Assembly: GCA_965223565.1 (NCBI GenBank)
Contig: CBDCWV010000017.1
Location: 84,463 to 148,462 of the forward strand
DNA length: 64,000 nt
Direction of reading: 5' to 3'
Origin: Myxococcota bacterium
GTDB lineage: Bacteria > Myxococcota_A > UBA9160 > UBA4427
This document shows, one piece after another, positions 1,876 to 63,246 of the stretch; the stretch's first letter is position 1; every line of letters starts with the position of its first letter. The notes beneath the pieces are model-generated. The model made no database searches and was not told the origin of the DNA. It saw only the letters and a program-made list of their open reading frames with translations. The translations under genes were made by a program, and so were the position numbers.

Positions 1876-3054
1876 TTGTGGGAAAATAAACACGTCGCTC
1901 TTCGTCGCGCGCGCGACGATCTCCGACGGAGAAGCCACGCATTGACGGAAGACACTTCGAGCAAGCCGGCCGGGGAGGCCGACGCCGGAAGCGGCCAGAA
2001 GGTGAAGCTGAAGCTCACGCTCTCGCCCCAGGCCGAGAAATACGCCCGCCGAGATGCCCCGCTCGAGGCCCGCCAGATGGCGGCGCGTGGCGCCCTGCCA
2101 CTCGAGCCGGTCGAGCTGGCGACGGTGCTCTTCGTGCTGGCGAACGACGAGGACGCCTCCGTCAAGGAGACCGCGCGCACGAGCCTCGAATCGCTCCCCG
2201 AGCAAGTACTCAAGACGGTCTTGTCGGGACCCGCCCACCCGGCGCTGCTCTCGTTTCTCGCCCGCATCCACAAGGAGACCGAATCCCACTGCGAGGCCAT
2301 CGCACTCAACCCGGCGAGTGACGACACGACGATCGCCTGGCTGGCCAGCCTGCCCCATCCCCGCGTCGTCGATATCATCAGTCAGAACCAAGAGCGGATG
2401 ATGCGGCACGAGGAGATCGTCGACGCACTCGGCGCGAATCCCCTGACCGGTCGGGCCGTGATCGAGCGGATCTTGACCTTTCTCGGCCTCGAAGAGCGCG
2501 CTGTCGACGACGCAGACGATGCCACGGTCGACGAGGACCAGGCGGAGGCGGCCGTCCTCGAGCTGCTCGGTGAAGAGATGGGCGACGTCGCTCGATTGCT
2601 CGCACAAGAGGGCGGCGACGACCTCGAGGACGAGGAGCTCGAGGGCAGCCTCTACGCGGCCGTCCAGAAGATGACGGTGATGCAGAAGATCAAGCTGACC
2701 CGCGTCGGCGGCAAGGAAGCCCGTGCCCTGCTCATCAAGGACCGGAACCGGATCGTCGCCTCCGCCGTGCTCGGCAGCCCCAAGCTCACCGAGACCGAGG
2801 TGATCGGCTTCGTCCAGAATCGCTCGATCGGCGACGAGCTGCTGCGAATCATCGCGAACAACCGCGACTGGACGAAGAACTACCAGATCAAGCTGGGCCT
2901 CGTGACGAATCCCAAGACGCCACAGCCGCAGGCGATCAAGTTCATCAACTACCTCCAGGACAAGGACCTGCGCGCACTCATGAAGAGCAAGGACGTTCCG
3001 AGCAACATCAGCGCCCAGGCTAGGCGCATCCTCGGCAAGAAGGGAAAGCTCTGA
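1876..3054 (+). CDS. HEAT/ARM-like helical repeat protein, function unknown; first gene of a coupled trio
   Basis: 392-aa ORF with high GC3. It shows recurring helical repeat segments (LPEQVLKTVL, HPALLSFLA, NPLTGRAVIERIL, SPKLTETEVIGFV, NPKTPQPQAIKFINYL) and an acidic linker. An alternative TTG start is possible at 1942. Its stop overlaps the next ATG (TGATG at 3052-3056). Confidence 0.6.
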   Translation: MWENKHVALRRARDDLRRRSHALTEDTSSKPAGEADAGSGQKVKLKLTLSPQAEKYARRDAPLEARQMAARGALPLEPVELATVLFVLANDEDASVKETARTSLESLPEQVLKTVLSGPAHPALLSFLARIHKETESHCEAIALNPASDDTTIAWLASLPHPRVVDIISQNQERMMRHEEIVDALGANPLTGRAVIERILTFLGLEERAVDDADDATVDEDQAEAAVLELLGEEMGDVARLLAQEGGDDLEDEELEGSLYAAVQKMTVMQKIKLTRVGGKEARALLIKDRNRIVASAVLGSPKLTETEVIGFVQNRSIGDELLRIIANNRDWTKNYQIKLGLVTNPKTPQPQAIKFINYLQDKDLRALMKSKDVPSNISAQARRILGKKGKL

Positions 3055-4067
3055 TGAAGGGCGTCAACGCGCGGATCCTGCTCTGGGGGATCGCCGGCAG
3101 TGGAAAGTCGACGACGCTCCGGACGATCCACGACAAGCTGCGATCGGACCTGCGCGGCGATCTCCGCCTCGAGCCGACGCGACTCGACCCGACGCTCCAA
3201 TACGAAGTCCTCCCGATCACGCTCGGCGAGGTCGCGGGCGTCGCGACCGAGCTCGAGATCGTCGCCGTACCGGGCGCCGACGAGCATGCGATGACCCGCA
3301 AGCAGCTGCTCGACGGTGTCGACGGAATCATCCTGCTGATCGACAGCAGCCCCGAGAAGATCGAAGCGAACATCCCCGCGATCGAGGAGCTCAAGACGTC
3401 GCTGGCCGCCTACGGTCAGCGCCTCGATGCATTCCCGGTCGTGCTCCAGTACAACAAACGGGACGTCGCCGATCCCTTCGCGATCGAGGATCTCCATCGT
3501 CGCATCGGCCTCGATCAGACGGCCGTCTTCGAGACGATCGCAACGACGGGCCACGGCATCCTCGCCACCCTCACGACGATCTCGAAGCATGTCGTGCGCG
3601 CGCGACGCGGTACGTCGCAGTCGAGCGGGTCGGCCGCAGTCACGTCCGATGGCGCCCCAGCCGACATCCACGCAACGACGGCAGCCGTGATCGCGTCGAA
3701 CGCCGACCTCGAGCTGCTCGAGCCGGACGAGGCCGAAGGAGCAGCCGAATCGATCGCGGATCCAGCTGCCGGTACGGTGCCTGCGGAGCCCCACGACGTG
3801 CTCGAAGCGGCGATTCTCGCCGAGGGCGAGGCACTCGCCGACACCGACCCGGCCGGCGACGCCGGGTTCCCGAACGTCGACGACACCGCGAAGGCCGACG
3901 CGTCGCCGCTCGGACCCGAGCTCCGCGTCGTCTCGGTCGGTCGCGCCGAGCTCGCCGCGGACGGCGGTGTCCGGCTGCCGCTGGTCCTGGGCGACGCCGC
4001 GGGCCGATCTCGGAGCGTCGTTCTCTCGCTGCGTCTGGATGCGCTCGCGTCGGAGCTCAGCGACTGA
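3054..4067 (+). CDS. MglA-family Ras-like small GTPase paralog with an approximately 150-aa acidic C-terminal extension
   Basis: P-loop GIAGSGKST. The segment DPTLQYEVLPITLGEVAGVATELEIVAVPGADEH aligns to MglA [34 protein letters not shown]. G4 motif QYNKRD is identical to MglA; G5-like ETIATTGHG. Residues at the MglA Arg53 and Gln82 positions are Pro and Ala. Confidence 0.8.
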   Translation: MKGVNARILLWGIAGSGKSTTLRTIHDKLRSDLRGDLRLEPTRLDPTLQYEVLPITLGEVAGVATELEIVAVPGADEHAMTRKQLLDGVDGIILLIDSSPEKIEANIPAIEELKTSLAAYGQRLDAFPVVLQYNKRDVADPFAIEDLHRRIGLDQTAVFETIATTGHGILATLTTISKHVVRARRGTSQSSGSAAVTSDGAPADIHATTAAVIASNADLELLEPDEAEGAAESIADPAAGTVPAEPHDVLEAAILAEGEALADTDPAGDAGFPNVDDTAKADASPLGPELRVVSVGRAELAADGGVRLPLVLGDAAGRSRSVVLSLRLDALASELSD

Positions 4068-6349
4068 TGCGTCGGCGTCTCGGCATCTGGGGGGCATCGG
4101 AGGAATCGCTCCGCCTGCTGCGCCTGCTCGCGGGCAACCCCGAGGTCGAGGTGATCCGGATCTTCGACGACGACGCGAGCGTCGGGCTCGCGCGCGCGCG
4201 CGGTCTCGGCGGCGCCCTCGCCCACGACGTGGCCCCCTTGCTCGTCGACGAGGTCGATGCGTTCTTCGCGCCCGCCACGGAATACGACGCCATCATCGAC
4301 GCCCGCGGCGATTTCGCGCAGCACGCACCCGAAGGTCCGCGCGCGGCGCTCCAGGTCGTCACGCCGCTCACGGCTCGGCTGCTCTGGGGCTACGGCGTCG
4401 CACCGCGCGACCGCAAGGCGGAGCTACTCCAGGCGCTGCACGAGGTCGTCGAGTCCGTCGAGCTCACGATCGACGGCGACGAGCTCTTCAAACGCATGCT
4501 CGAGATCGCGGTCGGCGTGACGGGCGCCGAGGGCGGCAGTCTCATGCTGCTCGATCCCGAGACACAGGTCCTTCGCATTCGCGTCGCGACGGGCGTCGAG
4601 CCCGAGCTCTGGCCGAAGATCCGCGTGGCACTCGGTCAGGGGATCTCGGGTCGGGTCGCCTCCGAGGGAAGGTCGATCCACCTGCGCGGTCGCGCGGACG
4701 GCGCGAAATTCGATCTGATCCGCGAGCGCGTCGACGTCGAGTCCGCGCTCTGCGTACCGCTCATCCACAGCGGTCGTGTGCTCGGCGTATTGAACGTGCA
4801 CCACGCGACCCAGCCGGACGTCTTCTCGGAAGAAGACCTTCGCTTCATGGAGCAGCTCGCGCGACTCGACGCCCAGATCATCGCGCGCGCCCAGGAGCAC
4901 GAACGCCTGCGCAGCCAGGCTGCTCGCTACGGCGCGGTCCAGGAGGTCCAGCGCATGCTCCGGGGCTCTGCCGTCCTGTCCGACCGCCTGCGCGAGTTCT
5001 GCGCCTACATGGCGGAGCGCGCCGGGCACGGTATCGCACAGCTCTACCTGCGCGAAGCCGACGGCGGGCTGCGACTGGCTGCGACGTCTCTCAAGGGCGG
5101 CGGCTTCGGCGGCGAGTACCGGCTCGAGCCCGGACAGGGGATCGACGGCGAAGCGATTCGCACCCGCGAGCTCTGCGTGCTCCGCCGCGAGGATGCACGC
5201 ATCGGCTATGCCGCCCTCCCCCTGGTCGCCGGCAAACAGCTCGTGGGTCTTCTGTCGATTCAGGTCGGTCCCGACAGCGAACAGAATCGCGGCACGCTCG
5301 AGGGCTGGCAGGAGATCGCGGCGGCCGCTGCCGACGCGATCGCCCGCAGCGACCACGAGGCGCGCCTCGCGAGTCGCGCGGAGCGCATCAATGCGATCAA
5401 CGAGACCTCGATCCGCATGCTGTCCTGTACCGATCCGAGCGAGGTCGCACGTCTGGCGACGTCGTCGGCCGCCATGGTGCTCGAAGCGGACCACGCGGTC
5501 CTGCGGCTTCAGAACCCAAAGACGCGACGTTATTCGATCCGTTCCTACTTCGGTGCCGCCGACGGCGAGGCCCAGGAGGCCCTCTTCCGACTCGACAAAG
5601 CCGTCACGGTCGACACGATCCGGCGTCGCACGCCCCACCTGATTCCCGATGCGAGCCTCGATCCGAAGCTCGGGGAATTCGTCGACGAGATGCGCTCGGT
5701 CCTCGCGGGCCCGATCAAGCGCGAAGGTGAAGTGATCGGGACGATCGCCGTCTACGACAAGGTCGCCCTCGACCGATTCTTCGCCAGTCGCTTCGACGAC
5801 GAGGACCTGCTGGTCTTCGGACGCTTCGTCTCCTACGTCGAGCGTGCGATCGACCATGCCCTCTCCCACCGCGAGAACCAACGCAATCGCAACTTCGACG
5901 ACGAGACCGGGCTACCGAACGCGGGCTACCTCGCGAAACGGACGGACGAGGAGATCGCACGTGCGGCCGGCCGCGAGAACGCACTCGCACTCTGCATCTG
6001 CCGGCTCGAGAACCGCGCCGAGCTGACGGCGGAGGCGAACGCGGCCCACGTCGGGCGGGTGATCCGGTGCCTGGCGGAGAGCCTGCAGACCCACCTGCGC
6101 GAGTTCGACGTGCTCGCGCGACTGGACAAGGACGAATTCGCCGTCCTGCTGCCCGAGCCGGGTCGCACGCCGGGGGAACGCGTCTTCGAGCTCGCCCGCG
6201 CGGTTGCCGACGCGATCGCGAAGAACGAGGCCCTGAACCAGCCGATCCGAGTCGGCCTGGCCTTCGGCTATGGCATCCATCCGGCGGATGGAGAAGATCG
6301 CGAAGCCCTGCTGGCGCACGCCCGCGAGCCACGTATTCGTATGGTCTAG
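4067..6349 (+). CDS. Multi-GAF protein with a C-terminal degenerate GGDEF domain (DKDEF) and a retained RxxD I-site
   Basis: GAF-like blocks are present, e.g. GAEGGSLMLLDPETQVLRIRVATG...GISGRVASEG...ALCVPLIHSGRVLGVLNVHH, followed by two more. The C-terminus reads DETGLPNAGYL...REFDVLARLDKDEFAVLLPE, a GGDEF fold with GG replaced by DK (nt 6125-6139) and RxxD (REFD) five residues upstream. The start overlaps the previous stop (TGATG at 4065-4069). Confidence 0.8.
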   Translation: MRRRLGIWGASEESLRLLRLLAGNPEVEVIRIFDDDASVGLARARGLGGALAHDVAPLLVDEVDAFFAPATEYDAIIDARGDFAQHAPEGPRAALQVVTPLTARLLWGYGVAPRDRKAELLQALHEVVESVELTIDGDELFKRMLEIAVGVTGAEGGSLMLLDPETQVLRIRVATGVEPELWPKIRVALGQGISGRVASEGRSIHLRGRADGAKFDLIRERVDVESALCVPLIHSGRVLGVLNVHHATQPDVFSEEDLRFMEQLARLDAQIIARAQEHERLRSQAARYGAVQEVQRMLRGSAVLSDRLREFCAYMAERAGHGIAQLYLREADGGLRLAATSLKGGGFGGEYRLEPGQGIDGEAIRTRELCVLRREDARIGYAALPLVAGKQLVGLLSIQVGPDSEQNRGTLEGWQEIAAAAADAIARSDHEARLASRAERINAINETSIRMLSCTDPSEVARLATSSAAMVLEADHAVLRLQNPKTRRYSIRSYFGAADGEAQEALFRLDKAVTVDTIRRRTPHLIPDASLDPKLGEFVDEMRSVLAGPIKREGEVIGTIAVYDKVALDRFFASRFDDEDLLVFGRFVSYVERAIDHALSHRENQRNRNFDDETGLPNAGYLAKRTDEEIARAAGRENALALCICRLENRAELTAEANAAHVGRVIRCLAESLQTHLREFDVLARLDKDEFAVLLPEPGRTPGERVFELARAVADAIAKNEALNQPIRVGLAFGYGIHPADGEDREALLAHAREPRIRMV

Positions 6350-6452
6350 CACTTTCCCGGACACATCCGGGGCCAATTGGCCACCTAACGGGAGAGGTTC
6401 GAGACCGCGCTGCCGATGGTGCGCACTCGAGCACCACCCGGAGGGTTTCGCC

Positions 6453-7139
6453 GTGTCCCGCATCCTCGTCTCATTGGTCGCCCTCCTGGCGACCGCGGCA
6501 TCGTCCGCGACCGCGATCACCTACTCGGACGGTACGTTCCTCGACGCCGACTGGACGGGCGTCAAGGTCGTCGATACGACCGCGAGTGCCGACGCCACGT
6601 TCGTCGCCGTACAGGTCGCGACCAACGGCAACCCCGACGCCTATCGCCGTGTCGAGCACGGCTATGGCCCCGGCTCGATCGGAATCCGCCACTTGAGAGA
6701 CGACGCGACCTACGACCCCGGTGCGCTCGGCGCGATCGCAACGCTCGACTACTCGTTCGACGCGATCCATCTCGATCCACCGACGAATCAGGCGGTCGCT
6801 TTCAACATCCTGCTCTTCCAGTCGGACTCGACCTATATCGCTGCGGGGCACAACGCCTTCGACGCCGTCTGGACGCCGTTCGGCGGCGCTGGGCTCGTCG
6901 CGGCCGATTTCTCGCTCTACGCCGGGACGGGCCCGTCCAATCCGGATTTCTCTCCGAGCGGCGGGGTGATCACGGCCGGCTATGCGACACGCAACACGAA
7001 CTCCGGGGGCGCGACGCGAATCACGCGGTTGGGCGGAATCGACAACTGGAGCGTGACGTTCAACCCCATCCCGGAACCGACAGCCGCGTGTCTGATCGGA
7101 ATTGGACTCGCTGGTCTCGCGTCATTGCGCCCTCGCTGA
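6453..7139 (+). CDS. PEP-CTERM sorting-domain secreted protein
   Basis: GTG at 6453 follows GGAGGG. Signal peptide VSRILVSLVALLATAASSATA. The C-terminus IPEPTAACLIGIGLAGLASLRPR shows PEP, a TM helix and a basic tail. Confidence 0.75.
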   Translation: MSRILVSLVALLATAASSATAITYSDGTFLDADWTGVKVVDTTASADATFVAVQVATNGNPDAYRRVEHGYGPGSIGIRHLRDDATYDPGALGAIATLDYSFDAIHLDPPTNQAVAFNILLFQSDSTYIAAGHNAFDAVWTPFGGAGLVAADFSLYAGTGPSNPDFSPSGGVITAGYATRNTNSGGATRITRLGGIDNWSVTFNPIPEPTAACLIGIGLAGLASLRPR

Positions 7140-7370
7140 GGCGAGCGCGGAGTCGAGCTCCGGACCGCCTCTCGAACTCCTGAGCTTCTGCTGATGTTCC
7201 CTTTCGTGCACTCTAGGGACAATTCCCTTGAGACACGCATGCCCTCGAGGGTTGCCTGCCGGCAGCCTCCTACAGGCAGTATGCGTGACCACGAGATTGC
7301 GTACGTGCCGCCCACACGTCGCGATCCATTCGCGCCGCGAGGTCCACCTCCGACGCGATTGAGGACTGAC

Positions 7371-9896
7371 ATGACGGAGCGATGGGTAGGATGGTCAGAT
7401 CGTCGAACGAAACGCATATCGACACCGCAGCGGACCGATCGCCTCGCGCAGCTTCCCGCACGAAACGCAATCCTCACCTTTGCCGTCGGCGCCGCGATCG
7501 CTCTACTCGCCAGCGCCGTCTCGGCCAAGACCTTCACCATCAACTCGACCGCTGACGCGGTGGACAACAACCCCGGCGACGGGTCGTGCTTCACGGGCAA
7601 CATCATCGTCTGGAGCATCGATCCCCCAATCAGTGAAGGCGAATGCACGTTACGAGCGGCGATCCTCGAAGCGAATCTTCTGGGCGGCGCCGACGAGGTG
7701 CATTTCGACGGCCGCCTCCCGGCGCCCGGCGGATTCGTCACGATCGTCCCGGGCAGCCCTCTGCCCTTTGTGACCGAGACACTTCAGATACGAGGCTCGA
7801 GCCATCCGTCCTACTCGGGCTCTTCGGCGTTCCCCACGCCGATCATCCATCTTTCGGGTCTTGCGCTCGCACCCGCCACACTGGCCTCGGGGATCGTTTT
7901 CTCCGTACCCGGCGCCCGATCCTCGTACGTCGAAGGACTCTCGATCGCGGGGTTCCCAGGCTGGGGCATCGAGATCCAGGGAGGACCGGCATTCCAGAGC
8001 GCGTCGATCCGAGTCGAGGGGAATCACATCGGTATCCGCAAGGGCCAATTCGTCGACGGCAACGGCCAGGGTGGCATCCTGATTTCGCAGGCGAACGAGA
8101 ACGCCATCGGACGGGTCTGCGTCGCGACGTGCGCGGGACGCGGCAACGTGATCTCCGGCAACGGCGGCCACGGGCTTCGCGTCGACGGCGAGTTCAACCT
8201 GGTCGGCGGCAATCGCATCGGTACGACCGTCGACGGCCTCGCCGCCGTGACCGCGTCCGGAATCCCAACCGGCAATTCGGGCAACGGCATCTGGATCAGT
8301 GACGGAGGTTCGAACGTGGTCGGGAGCATCGAAGCCCTGCCCGGTGGCGTCGTGCTGGTCGACAACGGCAACCTCGTCTCGGCCAATGGACTGAACGGCG
8401 TGACCGTCAACGGCGGGGACGACCATCGCGTGATCGGAAACCGAATCGGAACAGATCTGAACGGAAGCCATGCGCTCGGAAACGCGAGGTCAGGCGTCGT
8501 AGACGAGGCCTTCGAGACGGTCGTTGGCAGTGAAGGCCTCGGCTCGAATCTGATCTCCGGCAACTCGAGATACGGAATCTTGAACAACGGCGAATTCGCT
8601 CGCTACGCACACAACCGAATCGGGTTGAGCGCGAGCGGTCTCGGCACGATTCCGAACGGGCTCGGCGGCATTCTCGACGAGGGCTTCGAAGACACCATCG
8701 CCAACAACGCGATCGGAGGGAATTTCGGCTTCGGTATCGAGCTCTTGGGCACGGAGACGAGCGTCGTCGACAACTACGTCGGGACGGACGAAGCCGGAGC
8801 GGACTTCGGGAATCGGCTTGCTGGCATCATGGCCGGCGCCGGCGAGTACGATATCCAGAGAAACGTCGTCGGCCACAACGGCGGGGCTGGAATCTACGTC
8901 TCCAGCAACACCTTCGCCGTCGATCTCGGACACAATTGGATCGGAACCAATTCGGCCTGGCAGGATATCGGGAATTCGCTCGATGGCATCGAATCCCATT
9001 CGAAGTTCCGCATTGCCACGTTCGCCAACCGGATCGGGTTCAATGGAGGGCACGGCATCGCATTGCGAGCCGCTCCCAAGGACACGACCGGCGAATTCGC
9101 TGCCACGGGAAACTACATCGGAACGAATCCCGACGGCGACGATCTCGGCAACGTCGGCAGTGGCGTCTTCGCGGCCACAGGACCGAACGCACAGGTCTTG
9201 ATCGGCCTTCGACCCGCGACACCAGCACCCTACTCGCCTCCGGCGTGGGGAAACGTGATCGGCTGGAATGGAGGAGACGCGGTCACCATCCTGAGTGGTG
9301 CGGGAGCCGAGGTCGTCGGTCTCTTCGCTCGCGGCAACGGCGGTCAGGCCATCGATCTCGCGAACGACGGTCCGACGCCGAACGATCCTGGCGATGCGGA
9401 TACGGGCCCGAACGATCTACTCAATACGCCCGAGTTCGATATCTCTGCGACGAGATACGATGACACGACCGGCGAGCTCGTGATCCGATACCGCGTCGAT
9501 TCGACGATCGGGTCGCTCTCGGACGACGCCATCGTCGACTTCTACCTGTACGACCCGCTGAGCGACCCAGCGGAGCAGCTCGGTCGATGGGTCGGATTCG
9601 AGGTCGTGCCCGAGGCGGACCTCGGAATCGATCGTACGGTTCGCATCCTGCCACCGGCAGGATCGTTGGTTCCCTTCGACGGCGCAGGCTCTATCTTCTC
9701 GACCCTCCGCGCGACGACCACCCGTTCGTCGGGGACGAGCGAGCTCTCGACAGAATGGGTGCCCGTCCCCGAGCCGGCCTACGGCCTCGCACTCGCAGCG
9801 GGCGGATTGCTCCTTGCTGCTTCGCGATTCGGATCGGAACGAACGCCTACTGTCGATAGGCCTCGATCAGGACGTCGGAGGTCTCGGGTCGCATGA
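7371..9896 (+). CDS. Large secreted parallel beta-helix repeat protein with a CSLREA-like N-terminus and a PEP-CTERM anchor
   Basis: Signal-like [21 protein letters not shown], then [20 protein letters not shown]...[12 protein letters not shown]. There are many N-x-I-G-x-N/G-type beta-helix repeats and a [18 protein letters not shown] motif. The C-terminus [24 protein letters not shown] is followed by an Arg-rich tail. The ORF is open from 7194, so the start is uncertain. The 3' end overlaps convergent sat by 50 bp. Confidence 0.7.
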
Positions 9897-11109
9897 TGCG
9901 CGGGTCCGGGCGTTCGCCGGCCTGCAGCATCGACCGCACCTTCGTGCCGGAGATCGAGAAGGGCTTCTCGTCCGGATGGCGATCGGTCAGGTCGACACGC
10001 CCGAGGCTCTCGTAGAACGCGGCGAAGCCGACCTTACAAGGCTGGATCTTCAGGTCGCCGGGGAGCTCGTCGAAGATCTCGTGCGCATCGAAGTCGCCCC
10101 AGATCGCCTCGCCGTCCTCGAACGGTGCGTCGGCGTGCTTGCGACCGATCACGATGTCCGAGAAACCGTAGTTCTGTCGGTAGACACCGTGCATCACCGC
10201 CTCGGCCGGTCCGCCGTAGAACATCTTGATGTCGAGACCGATCAGCTCGAAGACGTCGGAGATGTCGTAGCCGGCCTTGTCCCAGATGGCCTGCTCCTTG
10301 TCGCCCTCTCCGAGAAGGCGTTCGCTGTGGAGCCTGCGGTAGCAGAGCATGCGGGTCGCAGCCGGGACGTCGTCTCCCTTGAGCTCGCCCATCAACGGAT
10401 TCAGCACGGCCCCGGCGAAATGGCCCTGGGCCGTCAGCTGCTCGACGCCGTAGACGAGCGCGTATTCATGCGCGCGATGGAGCGGATTGCGCGTCTGGAA
10501 GGCGAGCGCGCGCTCCCACTTGCGCTCGCGGATGAAGGCGCGTGTCATCCGGGGTGACAGCATGAACTCACCGTATTCCTTGTTCGGTCGCTGGGGCAAC
10601 GCACGCAACAATCCGCCGATCAGCTTCGACCTATCGTCGTTGTCGACGATTCGACCACCCGGATGATCGACGCGTTCCGTACCGTACACGGCCTTCAAGT
10701 AGGCGGGCTTGTCCCAATCGAAGACCTCGAGGTCGTCGAGGATCGCGACGACGTCCCCGGCCTCCGTCTTGACGGCGCAGGCGCCGCCGGTTGCGAGGCT
10801 GCCGGCCTCCGCATCCGTCAGGGGGAGCGAGATCGGGATCGTCCAGGCATAACGTCCGCCCTCGGAGAGCACGACGCGCTCGCTCAGCGCCAGATCGTAG
10901 GCCTCCTTCTTCATGGGCCCGACGAGCGGCGAGAGCGCGCCGTCGGCCAGACGATGGACCGTGGAGAGATCGGCGTCCGTCACGCGAATCGCGGGCAGCT
11001 TCTCGGCCTCCGCCAGAAACGCGGCCTTCTCCTTCCACGGAACGATCCGGTCTACGGGTTCGGCGAGGCCACCATGGACCGGAACAAGATCTCGATTCGA
11101 TCGACTCAT
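9847..11109 (-). CDS. sat: Sulfate adenylyltransferase (ATP sulfurylase)
   Basis: Signature [15 protein letters not shown] plus GRKHADAPF and GTKVRSML regions. At 420 aa it is the size of homo-oligomeric Sat enzymes. Confidence 0.85.
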
Positions 11110-56753: not shown

Positions 56754-59339
56754 GTGCGCCCGCAGCATTCCTTCGACTCGACGATTGCCCGCCTCGCCCG
56801 ACCGGTCGCGACCGCCGCGGATCGGACCCCGGCGCACCACGCGGCGAACCGGTCGCGCCTGCACGCCCGCTACGCCCTCCGCGCGCTCGCGGCCTGCGCG
56901 CTCGGCCTCGCCGTCGGATTCGCCGCCGATTCCGCTCAGGCCCAGCGCGGCGCGAGCGAGCGACCGGCGGCCGTCGGCGAAGAGGAGCTCGTGACGCTCG
57001 ACTTCAACGACGTCGAGCTTCCCGTCGTCGTCGACACGATCTCGCGCATGACCGGCTACAACTTCATCTATGACGATCGCGTGCGCGGCCGCGTCACGAT
57101 CGTCTCGCCGACCCAGGTGACCGTCGATCAGGCCTTCGCCGTCTTCGAGTCCGTGCTCAAGGTGAAGGGCTTCTCGCTCGTACTCGGCCCGGGGGATACC
57201 TACAAGATCATTCCGATTCGCGACGTCAAGGAATCGAGCATCGATACGATCAAGGACAACCGGCCCTCCCCCAATCGCGATCGCTTCGTGACCCGCCTGG
57301 TGCCGCTGCGATTCATCGACGCCGAGGCGATCACCCAGACGATCAAGCCTCTGATCTCGAAAGACGCCTCGCTCGTCGCCTACGAGGCGACCAACACGAT
57401 CATCGTGACCGACAGCGAGAGCAATATCCGGCGTCTGCTCTCGATCCTCGATGCGATCGACGTCGAGAGCTATCGCCAGGAATTGACGGTCATCAAGATC
57501 GAGCACGCCGACGCGAATACGCTGGCCGAGCAGCTCTCGGAGATCTACGGCGCGGAGGTCGCCTCGGCCTCCGGCGGCTCGACCGCGGCCCAGCGGCGCG
57601 CGCGCTCGCGACGCCGCACCTCGACGACGACGAACGGCACGTCGGAGAAGGCCGGCGCGATCGGGCCGACGGTGCGGATCCTGCCCGACGAGCGCACGAA
57701 CTCGCTGCTCGTGCTGGCGTCGCGTCAGCAGACGGCCGACATCCGTGGCCTCGTCCGCAAGCTCGACATCGAGGTGACGGGCGAAGGCCGAATCCAGGTC
57801 TACTACCTGCGCCACGCCGATGCCGAGGAGCTCTCGGAGACGCTCAACTCGCTGGTCGGCAGCGGCGGCGGGGGGGGCGCCGGCGGTCGCTCGTCGATCC
57901 CGGGCGCCGCCTCGAACGCGCAGAACATTCGCTCCGCCGTGACGCCGCTCGACGAGGGCATCACGGTGACCGCCGATCCCGCGACGAACGCGCTCGTGAT
58001 CAAGGCCAGCAAGGAAGGCTACGAGACGCTCAAGAAGGTGATCGAGAAGCTCGACATCTCGCGACCACAGGTGCTGGTCGAGGCGCTGATCGTCGAGGTC
58101 GACGTGACCGACTCGCTCAACCTCGGCTTCGATGCGGCGTTCCGGCTCGTCAATGGCGACACGGATCTGCTCTTCCAGACCGGCTCGGCCTTCATTCCCG
58201 GCGCCTCGGCCTTCACGCTCGCGCAGGCGTTGCGCTCGGGCACCCACAGCGACCCGAGCCAGGCCTTCAACGGCGGTGTCGCCCCGGACAGCAACGGCTC
58301 GAGCGTCGGCATCGGCGTGCGCGCCGACGCCTCCGACAAGGACGTCAACATCGTCTCCGCCCCGCATATCCTGACCTCGGACAACGAGGAGGCCGAGATC
58401 ATCATCGGCGACAACATCCCGATCGTGACGGGTCGAACCGAGGCCGCGACGGGTAACGCAGACGCCCTCTCGCAGGCGGTCAACGTCGACCGCCAGGACG
58501 TCGGCGTCACGCTCCGCGTCACGCCGCAGATCAGCGAGGGCGACACGCTCCGGCTGAACATCTTCCAGGAGATCACGGAGGTCTCGCCGAATCCCGAGGT
58601 CGGCGCTGCGAACGAGGTCGGCGTCGCGCTCAGCAACCGCAAGATCGAGAACACGGTCGTCGTGAACGACGGCGAGACGGTCGCGATCGGCGGGCTGATC
58701 GACGAGAGCTTCACCGATAACGAGAGCGGCGTGCCCTTCCTGCGCGACATCCCGTTCTTCGGCTGGTTCTTCAAGACGAAGCAAGAGGAGCTGCGCAAGA
58801 CGAACCTGCTGATCTTCTTGACGCCGCATATCATCCGCAACGCCGACGACCTCGAGCGGGAGACGATCCGCAAGCGCCTCGAGCTGGAAGACCGGCTCGG
58901 CGACGAGGACGACTTCCCGGAGCTCGCCAATCTCGACCGCCCCTCGTCGAGTCGCTCCTTCGCCGTCGCCGAAGAGCTCGCGCGCCACAGCGGGCGCTAC
59001 CCGATCGATCGCATGCGCGAGCTCGAGGAGGCCCGGGCGGCGAAGCGCGCCGAGGCCGAAGACGAGGCCGAGCGCCGCGAGGCGATCGGACGCCGCCAAT
59101 ACGCCGTCCAGGTCGCTACCTTCGTCGACGAGATCGAGGCGACCGAGGCGCTCACCCGGCTCGTCGATGCGGGCTACGACGGTACGCTGATCTCGAGCGA
59201 CTCGAAGGGGCGCATCGTCTTCACGATCCAGGTGGGACCCTTCGACGACCTCTGGGAGGCCGATCGCACGGCCGAGACCCTCGACGAAGCCTACGGCTAC
59301 GAGTCGTCCGTGACGCTCTTGCGAGGAGAGTCGCCATGA
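56754..59339 (+). CDS. gspD: Type II secretion secretin GspD with a C-terminal SPOR-like domain
   Basis: N0/N1-type domains (VTLDFNDVELPVVVDTISRMTGYNFIYD) and a secretin core (VVVNDGETVAIGGLIDE...VPFLRDIPFFGWFFK...NLLIFLTPHII). The C-terminal approximately 80 aa YAVQVATFVDEIEATEALTRLVDAGYDG...IQVGPFDD are SPOR-like. GTG at 56754. Confidence 0.85.
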   Translation: MRPQHSFDSTIARLARPVATAADRTPAHHAANRSRLHARYALRALAACALGLAVGFAADSAQAQRGASERPAAVGEEELVTLDFNDVELPVVVDTISRMTGYNFIYDDRVRGRVTIVSPTQVTVDQAFAVFESVLKVKGFSLVLGPGDTYKIIPIRDVKESSIDTIKDNRPSPNRDRFVTRLVPLRFIDAEAITQTIKPLISKDASLVAYEATNTIIVTDSESNIRRLLSILDAIDVESYRQELTVIKIEHADANTLAEQLSEIYGAEVASASGGSTAAQRRARSRRRTSTTTNGTSEKAGAIGPTVRILPDERTNSLLVLASRQQTADIRGLVRKLDIEVTGEGRIQVYYLRHADAEELSETLNSLVGSGGGGGAGGRSSIPGAASNAQNIRSAVTPLDEGITVTADPATNALVIKASKEGYETLKKVIEKLDISRPQVLVEALIVEVDVTDSLNLGFDAAFRLVNGDTDLLFQTGSAFIPGASAFTLAQALRSGTHSDPSQAFNGGVAPDSNGSSVGIGVRADASDKDVNIVSAPHILTSDNEEAEIIIGDNIPIVTGRTEAATGNADALSQAVNVDRQDVGVTLRVTPQISEGDTLRLNIFQEITEVSPNPEVGAANEVGVALSNRKIENTVVVNDGETVAIGGLIDESFTDNESGVPFLRDIPFFGWFFKTKQEELRKTNLLIFLTPHIIRNADDLERETIRKRLELEDRLGDEDDFPELANLDRPSSSRSFAVAEELARHSGRYPIDRMRELEEARAAKRAEAEDEAERREAIGRRQYAVQVATFVDEIEATEALTRLVDAGYDGTLISSDSKGRIVFTIQVGPFDDLWEADRTAETLDEAYGYESSVTLLRGESP

Positions 59340-61216
59340 GTCGCGAATTTCTGGTCGACCCGAGCGAGGAGCCCGGTGATGGGCTGAGCCCCGACGCCGC
59401 GGCCGACGAGCAGGCCCGACGCGCGGCGGCCCAGGCGGCGGGTGTCGCGCCCTCACCCTCACCCTCGTCGCGGAGCCGACCGGCGGGGCGCGGCGCCGAG
59501 AGCCTCGAACTCGGCGACATCCTGCTGCGCGAGACGCGCCTCACGCCGGAGCAGCTCGAGACCGCCCGCCAACGCCAGGCGGAGAGCCACGAGCGGCTGG
59601 CCGACGTGCTCGTCGAGGAGGGCTTCCTGAACGCCGACGAGGTGCTGCACGCGCTCGGCCACCAGCAGGGGCTCGCCGTCGTCTCCGCGATCGACCCCGA
59701 GGAGGTCGATGAGACGCTGCTCGCGGCCGTGCCGATCACGTTCGCCAAGCAACATCGCGTGCTGCCGCTCGCCTGGGCGTCGGAGGGCGTGCTGCGCGTC
59801 GCCGTGGCGGACCCGCTCGAGGTCGCGCCGCTCGACGATCTGCACCTGCTCTTCGACGGCGCCGAGATCGATCTCGTGCTGGCGCGCGAGCCGGTGATCC
59901 TGAACGCGATCAACGTCGCCTACGACCGCGGCGTCACCTCGACCGACCAGCTCGCCGAGGAGGCCGAGGACGATCTCGACGCGCTGGCGACCGAGATCAG
60001 CCACGAGCCGAAGGACCTGCTCGAATCGACCGACGACGCGCCGATCATCCGGCTGGTCAACTCGATGATGCAGCACGCGGTCAAGGAGCGCGCGAGCGAT
60101 ATCCATATCGAGCCCTTCGAGCACGAGATCCGGGTGCGCTTCCGGATCGACGACGTGCTCTACGAGCCCATGAAGCCGCTCCCGCGCGCACTCCAGGCCG
60201 CGATCGCGTCGCGCATCAAGATCATGGGCAATCTCGACATCGCCGAGAAACGCCTGCCCCAGGACGGCCGGATCCGGCTCAAGATCGCGGGGCGCGACTA
60301 CGACGTGCGGCTCTCGACCGTGCCCGTGGCCCACGGCGAACGCCTGGTCCTACGCCTGCTGCCCGATACCCAGGAGCTGCTCGATCTCGAGAAGATCGGC
60401 TTCAGCGAGTCCCAGCTGGCCGCCCTCGATCGCATCATCCGGCGCCCGAACGGCATCTTCCTCGTCACGGGACCCACCGGTAGCGGCAAGACGACGACGC
60501 TCCACGCCGCACTCGCCAAGATCAACGGCCCGGACAAGAACATCATCACGATCGAGGACCCGGTCGAGATCACGCAGCAGGGCGTCGGCCAGATCGAGGT
60601 CAATCCCAAGATCCAGCTCTCGTTCGCGACCGGCCTGCGCGCGATCCTGCGCCAGGATCCCAACGTCGTACTGGTCGGCGAGATCCGCGACAAGGAGACG
60701 GCCGAGATCGCGATCCAGGCCTCGCTCACGGGCCACCTCGTGCTGTCGACGCTGCATACGAACGACGCGGCGAGTGCGCTGACGCGGCTCGTCGACATGG
60801 GCGTCGAGCCCTTCCTGGTCGGCTCGTCGCTCGTCGCCGTCCTCGCCCAGCGCCTCGTCCGCGTGCTGTGTCAGGAGTGTCGCGAGGCCTATACGACGAC
60901 CGACGAGGAGCTGCGCGAGATCGGCGTCAAGCCGCCGGGCCGACCGGTCACGCTCTACCGGGGAACCGGCTGCGCGGCCTGCAGCCATACGGGCTATCGC
61001 GGTCGAATCGGCATCTTCGAGCTGATGACGATCGACGACGAGATCCGCTCACTCGTCAGCCAGAACGTCGATGCCAAGACGATCAAGGCGGCGGCGACGC
61101 GCAAGGGCATGGGCACGCTGCGCGCCGATGGTGCGCGCAAGGTCCTGGCGGGGCGCACCTCCGTCGCGGAGGTGATCCGCGCGACCGAGGAAGAAGGCAG
61201 CGCGGCCCAGGTCTAG
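59336..61216 (+). CDS. gspE: Type II secretion ATPase GspE (PilB/MshE-like N-terminal domain)
   Basis: Walker A GPTGSGKTTT, Asp/His boxes, a tetracysteine CQEC...CAAC, and an N-terminal T2SSE_N-type region. The start overlaps the gspD stop (ATGA). Confidence 0.9.
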   Translation: MSREFLVDPSEEPGDGLSPDAAADEQARRAAAQAAGVAPSPSPSSRSRPAGRGAESLELGDILLRETRLTPEQLETARQRQAESHERLADVLVEEGFLNADEVLHALGHQQGLAVVSAIDPEEVDETLLAAVPITFAKQHRVLPLAWASEGVLRVAVADPLEVAPLDDLHLLFDGAEIDLVLAREPVILNAINVAYDRGVTSTDQLAEEAEDDLDALATEISHEPKDLLESTDDAPIIRLVNSMMQHAVKERASDIHIEPFEHEIRVRFRIDDVLYEPMKPLPRALQAAIASRIKIMGNLDIAEKRLPQDGRIRLKIAGRDYDVRLSTVPVAHGERLVLRLLPDTQELLDLEKIGFSESQLAALDRIIRRPNGIFLVTGPTGSGKTTTLHAALAKINGPDKNIITIEDPVEITQQGVGQIEVNPKIQLSFATGLRAILRQDPNVVLVGEIRDKETAEIAIQASLTGHLVLSTLHTNDAASALTRLVDMGVEPFLVGSSLVAVLAQRLVRVLCQECREAYTTTDEELREIGVKPPGRPVTLYRGTGCAACSHTGYRGRIGIFELMTIDDEIRSLVSQNVDAKTIKAAATRKGMGTLRADGARKVLAGRTSVAEVIRATEEEGSAAQV

Positions 61217-61227
61217 CAGCCCGCGTC

Positions 61228-61369
61228 CGCGCCCCGGGTTGGACGCGGTCAACGGCCCGCGGAGAGCGCCGGGTTGGATGCGGTCAACGGCCCGCGGAGA
61301 GCGCCGGGTTGGATGCGGTCAACGGCCCGTGGAGAGCGCCGGGTTGGATGCGGGCAACGGCCCGTGGAG
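61228..61369. repeat. Four tandem copies of a 35-bp unit (GCGCCGGGTTGGATGCGGTCAACGGCCCGYGGAGA) filling the gspE-gspF intercistronic gap
   Basis: Read directly. Copies start at 61228 (37 bp, 2 extra C), 61265, 61300 and 61335, with 1-3 substitutions each. A period of 35 is not a multiple of 3. Each unit contains an imperfect inverted repeat (CCGGGTTG ... CAAC-GG-CCCG). Confidence 0.95.
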
Positions 61370-61383
61370 GATGAAGAGGGACC

Positions 61384-62625
61384 GTGCCGGTCTACGCCTA
61401 CAAGGGTGTCAACCAGTCGGGCAAGCCGACCCGCGGAACGATCAGCGCCGAGGGCGCGCGAGCGGCGCGCGCACAGATGCGTGCGGCTGGCGTCTTCCTC
61501 ACCGAGATCGCCGAAACGACCGCGACGGCAGGCCAGAAGGCCGGAGCCGCGGAGGGCACGGGCCGCTTCAACTTCGAGATCCGCCTGCCCCAGCGCATCC
61601 CCGGCATGGAGCGCGCCATGGCGACGCGCCAGCTCGCCACACTCGTGTCGGCGGGCGTCCCGCTGGTCGAGGCGCTCTCGGCCCTCGTCGAGCAGACGGA
61701 ACATCGCGCTCTGCGCGACGTCTTCGCGCGCGTGCGCGACCGCGTGAACGAGGGCTCGTCACTCGCGGACGCGCTCGTCGCGACCGGCCGCTTCGACAAT
61801 CTCTACGTCTCGATGGTGCGGGCCGGCGAGGCGAGCGGCGCGCTCGAGGCCGTGCTCACGCGGATCGCCGACTACCTCGAGGATCAGGTGCGGCTCAACA
61901 ACCGCGTGCTCTCGATCATGACCTACCCGCTCTTCATGTTGGTCTTCGCGGCCGTCGTCGTCGGCGTGATGGTCACCCTCGTGCTGCCCCAGATCACGGA
62001 GCTGCTGATCTCGCAGGATCTCGAGCTGCCCTGGTACACCGAGCTCGTGATCGGCAGCTCCGACCTGCTGCGGGGCTATTGGTGGCTGATGCTGCTGGCG
62101 CTCGTCGGATTCGCGCTCGTCTACCGCGCCATCGGCCGGACCGAGGGGGGCCGGCATTTCCTGGATCGTTTCTGGCTGCGCTTTCCGATCATCGGCCGTG
62201 TGATCCGATTCCTGGCGATCGCCCGCTTCACGCGCACGCTCGGCTCCCTACTCGCCAGCAGCGTCAATATCGTGCAGGCCCTGAACATCGCGCGACACGT
62301 CGCGAACAATGCCGTCTTCGAGCAGGCCGCGGACGACGCGAGAGAGAGCATCCTCGAAGGGGCGGCGCTCGCGAGTCCGCTCCGCGCGAGCGGCCAGTTT
62401 CCGCCGCTCGTGACCACGATGGTCGAGGTCGGCGAGCGTTCGGGCGAGCTCGAGGGCATGCTGATCAAGGTCGCCGACACCTACGAGGAGCAGGTCGAGA
62501 CGAGCGTGACCCGGCTCACCTCCCTGCTCGAGCCCATCCTCATCCTCGTCATGGTCGGCATCGTCGGCGTCATCATCATGGCGGTACTGATGCCGATGCT
62601 GCAGCTGACCGAGAGCATCGGATAG
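61384..62625 (+). CDS. gspF: Type II secretion inner-membrane platform protein GspF
   Basis: MPVYAYKGVNQSGKPTRGTISAE is the typical GspF/PilC N-terminus. Two T2SSF repeats and three TM segments. GTG start. Confidence 0.85.
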   Translation: MPVYAYKGVNQSGKPTRGTISAEGARAARAQMRAAGVFLTEIAETTATAGQKAGAAEGTGRFNFEIRLPQRIPGMERAMATRQLATLVSAGVPLVEALSALVEQTEHRALRDVFARVRDRVNEGSSLADALVATGRFDNLYVSMVRAGEASGALEAVLTRIADYLEDQVRLNNRVLSIMTYPLFMLVFAAVVVGVMVTLVLPQITELLISQDLELPWYTELVIGSSDLLRGYWWLMLLALVGFALVYRAIGRTEGGRHFLDRFWLRFPIIGRVIRFLAIARFTRTLGSLLASSVNIVQALNIARHVANNAVFEQAADDARESILEGAALASPLRASGQFPPLVTTMVEVGERSGELEGMLIKVADTYEEQVETSVTRLTSLLEPILILVMVGIVGVIIMAVLMPMLQLTESIG

Positions 62626-62805
62626 AACCGAGACGCGTCGACTATCATCGAATCTCGGAGCCTGAACCGCTCGAGCCAAGACAATTCGCCCCACTGGAGA
62701 ATTCTCGTCATGAAAGTAGACATCCCGTTCGCACCCGGAGAGGCGCGCCGACCCGAAATCGAGCCCCCCGATCGACACGCGGCCCGACCGACCGAATGCG
62801 CCGAC

Positions 62806-63246
62806 GTGGAGCGCCGCCAAGCGGCGGGCTTCACGCTGATCGAGATCATGGCGGTCGTCGTGATCATGGGCATGTTGATGGGCGTGCTCGCCGTCGGAAT
62901 CGCGGGCCAGCTCGAGCAGGCCGAGAAGAAGACCGCCCGTGGCCAGATCACGCGGATCGAGCAGGCGCTCGAGTTCTATCGCCTGGACAACCGTCGCTTC
63001 CCGACCGATGACCAGGGTCTCGAAGCGCTGGTCAGCAAGCCGAGCGCGCCACCGGTTCCCAAGGACTACAACCCGGCGGGCTACATCAAGCCCGAGGCGC
63101 TCGAGGATCCCTGGGGCCAGCCCTTCCAGTACCGCATGCCGGGTCAGCACAACCCCTACACCTTCGATATCTGGTCGCTCGGACCCGATGGTGTCGAAGG
63201 GGGCGACGACATCCAGAACTGGGCGGGTGGCGAAAGCGACGCTTGA
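62806..63246 (+). CDS. gspG: Major pseudopilin GspG
   Basis: Prepilin leader and cleavage site VERRQAAG|FTLIEIMAVVVIMG. GspG-specific blocks ARGQITRIEQALEFYRLDN and DPWGQPFQY. The GTG at 62806 gives a normal 8-aa leader and about 146 aa; the ORF is open from 62710. Confidence 0.85.
   Translation: MERRQAAGFTLIEIMAVVVIMGMLMGVLAVGIAGQLEQAEKKTARGQITRIEQALEFYRLDNRRFPTDDQGLEALVSKPSAPPVPKDYNPAGYIKPEALEDPWGQPFQYRMPGQHNPYTFDIWSLGPDGVEGGDDIQNWAGGESDA

Follow-up and report, generated by a model that had tools for sequence, protein, structure and literature searches.

A conserved operon joining an alpha-solenoid protein, an MglA-like G protein and a degenerate-GGDEF protein in Myxococcota-type genomes

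To our knowledge, nearly all that is known of Ras-like G proteins in bacteria comes from the control of polarity by MglA and MglB and from the actinobacterial conservons, and orphan MglA proteins without a nearby MglB are known as well. Within the MglA family, Group 1 proteins present R-T in the G2 motif together with TVPGQ, while T-T and GTPGQ are the signature of Groups 2-5, and the arginine finger R53 is essential for the GTPase activity of both MglA and SofG (PMC4316618). In Bdellovibrio, MglA binds the tetratricopeptide repeat (TPR) protein Bd2492, which itself interacts with CdgA, a degenerate-GGDEF receptor (Milner et al. 2014, PMC3983030), a precedent that had been cited correctly in a first-pass annotation of the DNA considered here. 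This DNA is a stretch of 64,000 nucleotides (nt) from a Myxococcota bacterium (contig CBDCWV010000017.1, positions 84,463 to 148,462), hereafter the window, in which three consecutive genes on the + strand encode an alpha-solenoid protein (P1), a G protein of the MglA fold (P2) and a protein with three GAF domains and a degenerate GGDEF domain (P3). Compared with the systems above, the locus is characterized by a P2 in which the residues for hydrolysis are substituted, by a P1 that represents a large family of its own, and by a P3 that was found solely in loci whose P2 lacks both R53 and Q82 (numbering of MglA).

The three genes and their products

The operon comprises P1 (1942..3054, 370 amino acids, aa), P2 (3054..4067, 337 aa) and P3 (4067..6349, 760 aa), and both junctions consist of the sequence TGATG, located at 3052..3056 (ctcTGATGaag) and 4065..4069 (gacTGATGcgt), respectively. 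In each of them the overlap is 1 nt long, the last base of the stop codon being the A of the next ATG. These overlaps had been reported in the first-pass annotation, and both the list of open reading frames (ORFs) and the sequence itself bear them out. The three ORFs proposed at that time are likewise real, but the start of the first of them had to be shifted: the P1 frame is open from a TTG at 1876 (to 3054), which is probably not the true start, while the TTG at 1942 is the probable start according to an identical 370-aa database protein. Relatives of P1 have a length of about 357 aa, and a GTG at 2002 is an alternative start. Only one MglA-like ORF and one P1-like ORF were found in the whole window, whose G+C content is 67.6%.

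P2 is MglA-type in sequence and fold. It matched the Pfam families Arf and MglA, and its residues 3-183 aligned with MglA of Myxococcus xanthus (5ymx) with an E-value of 7e-33 and with that of Thermus thermophilus with 5e-31 (phmmer). Moreover, when the AlphaFold2 model of P2 was compared by Foldseek, the top 14 matches were all MglA, with a template modelling (TM) score of 0.83, followed by Ras and Rho at E-values of about 1e-8. The G domain covers aa 1-190 (nt 3054..3623) and was modelled with a predicted local distance difference test (pLDDT) of about 90. It is followed by an acidic, Ala-rich linker (3621..3914), predicted to be disordered, with pLDDT below 50 outside one short helix; this helix (aa 246-260, nt 3789-3833) is conserved, with E251, A253, I254 and L255 being invariant. 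Finally, a three-stranded beta domain closes the protein (aa 288-328, nt 3915..4037; pLDDT about 90). No Pfam match was obtained for this C-terminal domain, which is homologous in all P2 groups, Geobacteraceae loci included, and is the hallmark of the P2 family.

The nucleotide-binding motifs of P2 were found intact, namely the P-loop GIAGSGKS (aa 12-19), the switch-I residue T47 and NKRD (aa 134-137). With G1, the G2 Thr and G4 in place, P2 carries the motifs of a P-loop guanine-nucleotide-binding protein, and nucleotide binding is predicted. In contrast, the catalytic positions differ from those of MglA, as the alignment places Pro46 (nt 3189-3191) at the position of R53 and Ala75 (nt 3276-3278, within AVPGA) at that of Q82, while T78 and G21 (the equivalent of Ras G12) are both replaced by Ala. 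Across the clade, the Q82 position is occupied by Ala, Gly or Ser, and the G21 position by Ala or Glu. An acidic residue just after G3 is kept in P2 and is common in its orthologues. The earlier label of 'MglA-like GTPase' is thus right for the fold and the nucleotide motifs but not for the activity that it implies, since the hydrolysis residues are gone, and P2 is probably not a cycling switch. In the published classification, P2 fits neither Group 1, as it has P46-T47 instead of R53-T54, AVPGA instead of TVPGQ and a length of 337 aa instead of about 150-240 aa, nor Groups 2-5, as both T-T in G2 and GTPGQ in G3 are lacking (P-T and AVPGA, respectively). The survey behind that classification took only proteins of 150-240 aa (Wuichet & Sogaard-Andersen 2014, PMC4316618), and proteins of the length of P2 were therefore left out.

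MglB, the usual partner of MglA, was searched for by using the M. xanthus MglB sequence (identical to PDB 6h5b_B) as the query. Nothing better than E = 5 was obtained over all the ORFs of the window (phmmer --max), and nothing at E <= 0.01 appeared in the flanks of 126 related loci (phmmer, default filters). Furthermore, the coding-like small ORFs of the window gave no Pfam match to Robl_LC7, matching other families or none. The absence of any Roadblock/LC7 protein from the 64 kb, as initially claimed, is consequently supported at the moderate sensitivity of phmmer --max over the ORFs and Pfam on the small ones.

In P3, an N-terminal domain without a Pfam match and of no assigned family (aa 1 to about 125) precedes three stretches matching Pfam GAF_2 (1e-34), at about aa 130-279, 290-430 and 445-600, and a domain matching Pfam GGDEF (2e-15; aa 609-753). 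When aligned to solved cyclases, the segment RLDKDEF of P3 fell on R-x-GG[DE]EF, with the degenerate active-site motif DKDEF (6125..6139) aligned to GGDKF, GGEEF and GGDEF, while CICRLENRAE replaced DxDxFKxxND. The segment R678-E-F-D681 (6098..6109) aligned to the RxxD motif of the I-site, five residues upstream of the degenerate GGDEF motif, which is the arrangement of I-site receptors. Among 30 orthologues of P3, GG was present in none (0/30), RxFD in all (30/30) and R[ED]FD in 28 (28/30). Both the Pfam matches and the DKDEF alignment agree with the original description of P3 as a GAF/degenerate-GGDEF protein. Judging from these residues, which depart from GG[DE]EF and from the metal- and substrate-binding Asp and Asn of active diguanylate cyclases, P3 is predicted not to be a cyclase; it bears the signature of an I-site receptor of cyclic di-GMP (c-di-GMP), and binding of this messenger is predicted.

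As for P1, no Pfam or NCBIfam family scored above threshold, its sole sub-threshold match being LRV_2 (17.7 bits vs. a cut-off of 27), and no TPR family was found at E <= 0.1 in the Pfam scan. Its relatives showed weak matches to HEAT_2 and LRV_2 in Pfam, and no sequence relative of P1 was found among solved structures. The AlphaFold2 model, for which 54 diverse homologues were given as input, reached a pLDDT of 90.2 and a predicted TM score of 0.81, and consists of an all-alpha solenoid with about 25 short helices. When this model was compared to the PDB by Foldseek, only generic ARM/HEAT matches were obtained (importins, PP2A-A and beta-catenin), with a best E-value of 0.02 and a TM score of about 0.2. 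The model thus shows the alpha-solenoid of HEAT, ARM and LRV proteins, while the curated repeat models do not recognize the sequence. Accordingly worded, 'HEAT-like repeat protein', the label first given to P1, is a fair description of the modelled fold, and the possibility that this ORF belonged to a well-characterised unrelated family, which would have spoken against the proposed module, found no support in Pfam, solved structures or Foldseek.

P1 represents a new family, distinct from TPR proteins. More than 1300 homologues were found in a word-indexed search, all of them named 'hypothetical', the closest 120 having identities of 72-83%, and an exhaustive HMMER scan gathered 3435 clusters of 50% identity at E <= 1e-3, the distant relatives being named 'hypothetical' as well or bearing no name. 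Several basic and polar residues of P1 are invariant (K249, K251, K258, R261, N269, R302 and N323), and they are equally conserved in loci with and without an adjacent P2. Moreover, the comparison of P1 columns between P2-containing and P2-less loci gave no clustered differences that could mark a P2-binding patch. As a separate observation, a P1 homologue of 711 aa (P0222) is fused, or mis-called as fused, to ketopantoate hydroxymethyltransferase (PanB), another association with the pantothenate/coenzyme A pathway.

Gene order and the catalytic state of P2 in related loci

The loci sampled came from a one-genome-per-species scan (44), a metagenome scan (80) and contig look-ups (4). The P1-P2 order was counted in those with at least 900 nt downstream of P1, and the presence of P3 in those with at least 2500 nt. 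By profile searches, P2 was found directly after P1 in 87 of the 98 loci, and P3 followed in 53 out of 65. Moreover, the P1/P2 junctions overlapped in 85 of 105 cases, with TGATG in 79 of them, and so did the P2/P3 junctions in 52 of 66. In related metagenome-assembled genomes (MAGs), independent gene calls likewise gave shared end and start coordinates. Both order and overlap were kept down to 50% identity of P1 in about 100 loci, so that the survey of relatives proposed together with the first-pass annotation shows the trio to co-occur with its overlaps. All carriers of the full trio are uncultured MAGs, including more than 50 Myxococcota-type loci. Some of the MAGs with the operon (L002/L127, JACKFD010000001.1, and others) are labelled Spirochaetaceae, which is probably a taxonomic mislabel, as one isolate name contains MYXO and the proteins are named Myxococcota elsewhere.

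Upstream of the operon, birA (2-880) and coaX, encoding type III pantothenate kinase (about 900-1697), were identified on the + strand of the window by Pfam. They form a conserved context, as the order nadC-birA-coaX-P1-P2-P3 was found in close relatives (birA-coaX before P1 at 2-1697 in the window; 6839-9826 in L127). In Geobacteraceae MAGs the order was nadC-birA-coaX, followed by a paralogue of EF-G, a SPOR-domain protein, P1 and P2 (L045, 3924-6609), and in a Myxococcales MAG it was birA-coaX-EF-G-P1 (L040, 502-2049). Hence, the initial view of the trio as one hard-wired unit stands in that the three genes make up one operon, but the basic unit is P1-P2, the older core pair, while P3 is an addition restricted to one clade.

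Some further observations concern the loci in which P1 stands alone. They include a clade (L116-L126, L114, L040) of about 35% identity, mostly from soil metagenomes, in which P1 comes after coaX and has no adjacent G protein. The synteny of nadC-birA-coaX ahead of P1, this soil clade included, is unusually deep for a signalling gene. The ORF after P1 in two of these loci (L040 and L119) was considered as a decayed P2 and rejected, as a composition this rich in Leu and Arg suggests a spurious antisense ORF, and the ORF of L119 had no match to the G-domain profile. Furthermore, in L040, a locus without P2, a response regulator of 687 aa (5515-7578, minus strand) with a long coiled-coil-like region recalling FrzS converges on P1.

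Variable catalytic states of P2 were observed among the loci. In 90 of them, hereafter the dead-P2 loci, G2 reads D-P-[TSAG] instead of R-T, and G3 is almost never xVPGQ. In contrast, the arginine finger is kept in the P2 of nine loci, three of which also keep the glutamine, presenting R-T with [TS]VPGQ (L038, L112 and L113), while the P2 of Geobacteraceae presents G-R-M with TVPG[ED]. In all these nine loci (9/9), a membrane-anchored protein with C-terminal SPOR domains is encoded directly upstream of P1 and no P3 is present (L038, 155-3473; L041-L046; L112, 820-4349; L113, 4304-8322). On the other hand, P3 is restricted to loci whose P2 lacks both R53 and Q82 (53/53). In the P1 tree rooted on the Geobacteraceae loci, the 90 dead-P2 loci form one clade, and the correlation between P3 and a dead P2 therefore reflects a single evolutionary event. 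Between the P1 columns of the dead-P2 loci and those of the loci with an R53-keeping P2, a single Q to E difference was detected, and no compensating catalytic residue was seen. The SPOR protein encoded next to P1-P2 in each of the nine R53-keeping loci suggests an unrecognized small-GTPase system linked to the septum.

The decay of P2 goes further in some lineages. The P-loop Lys is kept in 90 of 106 P2 sequences and lost in the other 16. A nested subclade of six dead-P2 loci has no P3, and its P2 is further decayed where examined. In particular, the P2 of L074 (6795-8054) has GSESVGLT as its P-loop and TGPD as G4, while its P1, the overlap and the C-terminal beta domain are retained; in the same subclade, the P2 of L030, L072, L081 and L084 scored weakly against the G-domain profile, and the P-loop Lys of L030 is gone. 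From its motifs, a P2 of the L074 type looks like a fully degenerate pseudo-GTPase. In this subclade, the pairing of P1 and P2 outlasts the complete loss of the nucleotide motifs, which argues for a structural partnership rather than a GTPase timer.

Possible mechanisms

Under the reading that we put forward, the three proteins would be translated from one mRNA as a signalling module. P1 and P2 would form an obligate pair, the ancient core of this module, and the P2 of this clade would bind GTP without hydrolysing it by the MglA mechanism, acting as a permanently 'on', pseudo-GTPase-like structural subunit and not as a timer. P3 would join the pair and give the regulatory input, with c-di-GMP bound at the I-site and a small ligand at the GAF domains. 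Overall, we give a little short of an even chance to a P1-P2-P3 complex in which the sensing of ligand and c-di-GMP by P3 replaces the GTPase cycle. As regards the output, our best guess, held with low confidence, is spatial control at the division site or the pole, because polarity is under the control of MglA-family proteins and a SPOR protein accompanies the ancestral pair. SPOR domains bind septal peptidoglycan.

A number of points weigh against such a complex. Its assembly, the fixed stoichiometry that the first-pass annotation had deduced from the overlaps, the binding and hydrolysis of nucleotide by P2 and the binding of c-di-GMP by P3 are all read from sequence, and the secondary I-site arginine of P3 is not confidently placed. 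HAS-GTPases hydrolyse GTP without the catalytic Gln, and P2 keeps an acidic residue after G3. Moreover, P1 is equally conserved in lineages without an adjacent P2, and therefore it has a role that does not require P2. The 53 loci with P3 and a dead P2 go back to one phylogenetic event and are not 53 independent ones. Finally, in one subclade, and in another locus besides, a dead P2 occurs with no P3 next to it.

A first alternative is that P2 is a true GTPase switch, whose missing residues would be given in trans by P1 or P3, working as a built-in GTPase-activating protein (GAP), or which would follow the HAS-GTPase mechanism. RasGAP supplies an Arg finger, and RapGAP supplies an Asn thumb to the Gln-less Rap. 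The set of invariant P1 residues listed above (K249 to N323) is in line with this possibility, as are the nucleotide motifs, intact in the P2 of the window and in most orthologues, the frequent acidic residue after G3 and the tight translational coupling, which would suit a G protein and its GAP. However, the absence of P2 makes no difference to the conservation of these P1 residues, and, the one Q to E apart, P1 has no position fixed in the dead-P2 clade alone. In addition, the Ala or Glu at the position equivalent to Ras G12 is of the kind that in Ras blocks the Arg finger of GAP, and the loss of the P-loop Lys in 16 of 106 P2 sequences, joined in one subclade by that of NKxD, is hard to fit with selection for hydrolysis. 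We hold such a GTPase switch to be rather unlikely. More doubtful still is that the trio represents a hard-wired counterpart of the Bdellovibrio hub (MglA, Bd2492 and CdgA), controlling type IV pili or the identity of the pole. The same three types of components interact in B. bacteriovorus, where MglB is missing too and position 21 of MglA is not Gly (PMC3983030), and a set of E, F and G genes of the type II secretion system (T2SS)/type IV pilus type lies in the window at 58.7-63.2 kb. Nevertheless, the Bdellovibrio MglA keeps the critical GTP-binding residues and its three genes are unlinked (PMC3983030), while P1 has neither a TPR match nor a specific structural relative, no RomR was seen adjoining the module, and the ancestral neighbours are not pilus genes but housekeeping genes and one for a SPOR protein. 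The likeness is limited to the types of components, and the parallel that had been drawn with the hub thus holds as an analogy, but not as homology, P1 not being a TPR protein.

Two other explanations were considered, both of them with lower probability. That the three genes are mere co-transcribed neighbours with unrelated functions, their overlaps being due to genome compaction, is improbable: in about 100 loci, with P1 identities as low as 50%, the order and the overlap are kept, the P1-P2 pair spans from Myxococcota-type MAGs to Geobacteraceae, and P3 is present or absent according to the catalytic state of P2. This stands even though overlapping stop and start codons are frequent in GC-rich operons, a single one being unremarkable in a compact operon of 68% GC, the upstream genes birA and coaX are housekeeping genes, and P1 stands alone in some lineages. 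It is hardly credible that P3 has diguanylate cyclase activity under the control of P2: although Pfam recognizes the GGDEF fold, none of the orthologues examined retains GG, the Asp that binds metal or the Asn/Asp that bind substrate.

A more far-reaching version of the complex with P3-based sensing, which we consider possible but still on the unlikely side, would be a prokaryotic pseudo-GTPase module in which P2, either permanently loaded with GTP or independent of nucleotide, is held by P1 after abandoning the GTPase cycle in one lineage, and control has passed to P3, the ancestral SPOR-P1-P2, whose P2 keeps the arginine finger, being a small-GTPase system tied to the septum. If true, P1 would represent a new class of partner of the MglA family, with thousands of protein clusters. 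Likewise, if the mechanism proposed above holds, P2 would be a clear bacterial case of a G protein converted to a pseudo-enzyme scaffold whose regulation a second messenger has taken over; direct hypotheses on the connection between small GTPases and c-di-GMP signalling would follow. The locus itself adds a large, unnamed and conserved partner family (P1), and an MglA subfamily with a C-terminal domain and without MglB. It also provides a natural series of P2 proteins, from those in which the arginine finger is kept to the hydrolysis-dead and the fully degenerate ones, and at the first transition the third partner changes as well, a septal SPOR protein giving way to a sensor of the c-di-GMP type. 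In literature searches, whose coverage was incomplete, no published description of the module, of the P1 family or of an MglA subfamily lacking both Arg and Gln was found, in agreement with the first-pass annotation, which had taken the module to be uncharacterised. Nothing specific was found either on links between SPOR proteins and small GTPases or on MglA2-type proteins.

Surroundings of the operon and relation to known systems

Downstream of P3, two secreted proteins are encoded in the window (6237-7139 and 7194-9896) before the gene for ATP sulfurylase, which converges on them from the minus strand (9847-11109). Of the two, the first has a weak Pfam match to PEP-CTERM, while the second one, of 900 aa, has no Pfam match and presents glycine-rich repeats and a tail resembling a PEP-CTERM anchor. 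Neither of them is encoded at this place in L127 or L128, and they may be a lineage-specific insertion. The T2SS/type IV pilus-like set of the window (58721-63246) encodes an ATPase (E) that includes an MshEN domain, a platform protein (F) and a pseudopilin (G) bearing the N-methylation motif; MshEN domains bind c-di-GMP. In the relatives, genes for a sigma-54 activator response regulator, a factor of the sigma-70 family and a PP2C phosphatase were found upstream of nadC (L127, 1012-4493; L128, 1248-6844), together with a large response regulator in L128.

Among known G proteins, MglA of Group 1 (M. xanthus and T. thermophilus) is the best match of P2 in both sequence and structure, sharing with it a G3 of the form xVPGx without Asp and intact G1 and G4 motifs. 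However, P2 lacks R53, Q82, T78 and G21, it has the additional linker and beta domain, and it is coupled to P1 instead of a Roadblock GAP. The nearest published mention of P2-like proteins is the 'Group II MglA2' of Fremgen et al. 2010 (PMC3000849, Table 2), here set beside P2 by description, which differs in being described as keeping TxxG. A 291-aa protein of G. sulfurreducens (NP_952979.1) is among those listed as 'MglA2'. The orphan MglA paralogue SofG differs in keeping a functional Arg finger, and for neither of these two has a partner similar to P1 or P3 been reported. Outside prokaryotes, the GTPase-deficient Rnd/RhoE and RhoH keep, like P2, the Ras-like fold and the nucleotide motifs with their catalytic residues substituted, and their regulation depends on partners instead of a cycle of GAPs and guanine nucleotide exchange factors. 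They are unrelated to P2 by descent, and the case of P2 is prokaryotic, with dedicated partners in the same operon.

With regard to the partners, P1 shares the alpha-solenoid fold class with ARM/HEAT proteins that bind small GTPases (importin-beta with Ran, SmgGDS and the GTPase-binding domain of formins), and alpha-solenoids commonly grip small G proteins. Nevertheless, the likeness is generic (E >= 0.02, TM about 0.2), with no match to a sequence family. P1 differs from the TPR-type partners of MglA, namely Bd2492 and SgmX, in having no TPR repeats, the distinction from Bd2492 being made by description. P3 resembles the degenerate-GGDEF receptors PelD, PopA, CdgA and SgmT in pairing an inactive GGDEF domain with an RxxD at the canonical spacing, and its order of GAF followed by degenerate GGDEF is reminiscent of the cytoplasmic part of PelD. 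Unlike them, it has three GAF domains and an extra N-terminal domain, has no membrane or receiver domains, and is coupled to a G protein. As a whole, the locus resembles the Bdellovibrio hub, with which it has in common an MglA-type protein with neither an MglB nor Gly at position 21, a helical-repeat protein and a degenerate-GGDEF protein of the receptor type. In the hub, however, the repeat protein is of the TPR type, the genes are not linked to one another and CdgA is described as lacking GAF domains (PMC3983030), while in the window a single operon encodes an ARM/HEAT-like P1, the G protein and a P3 with three GAF domains.

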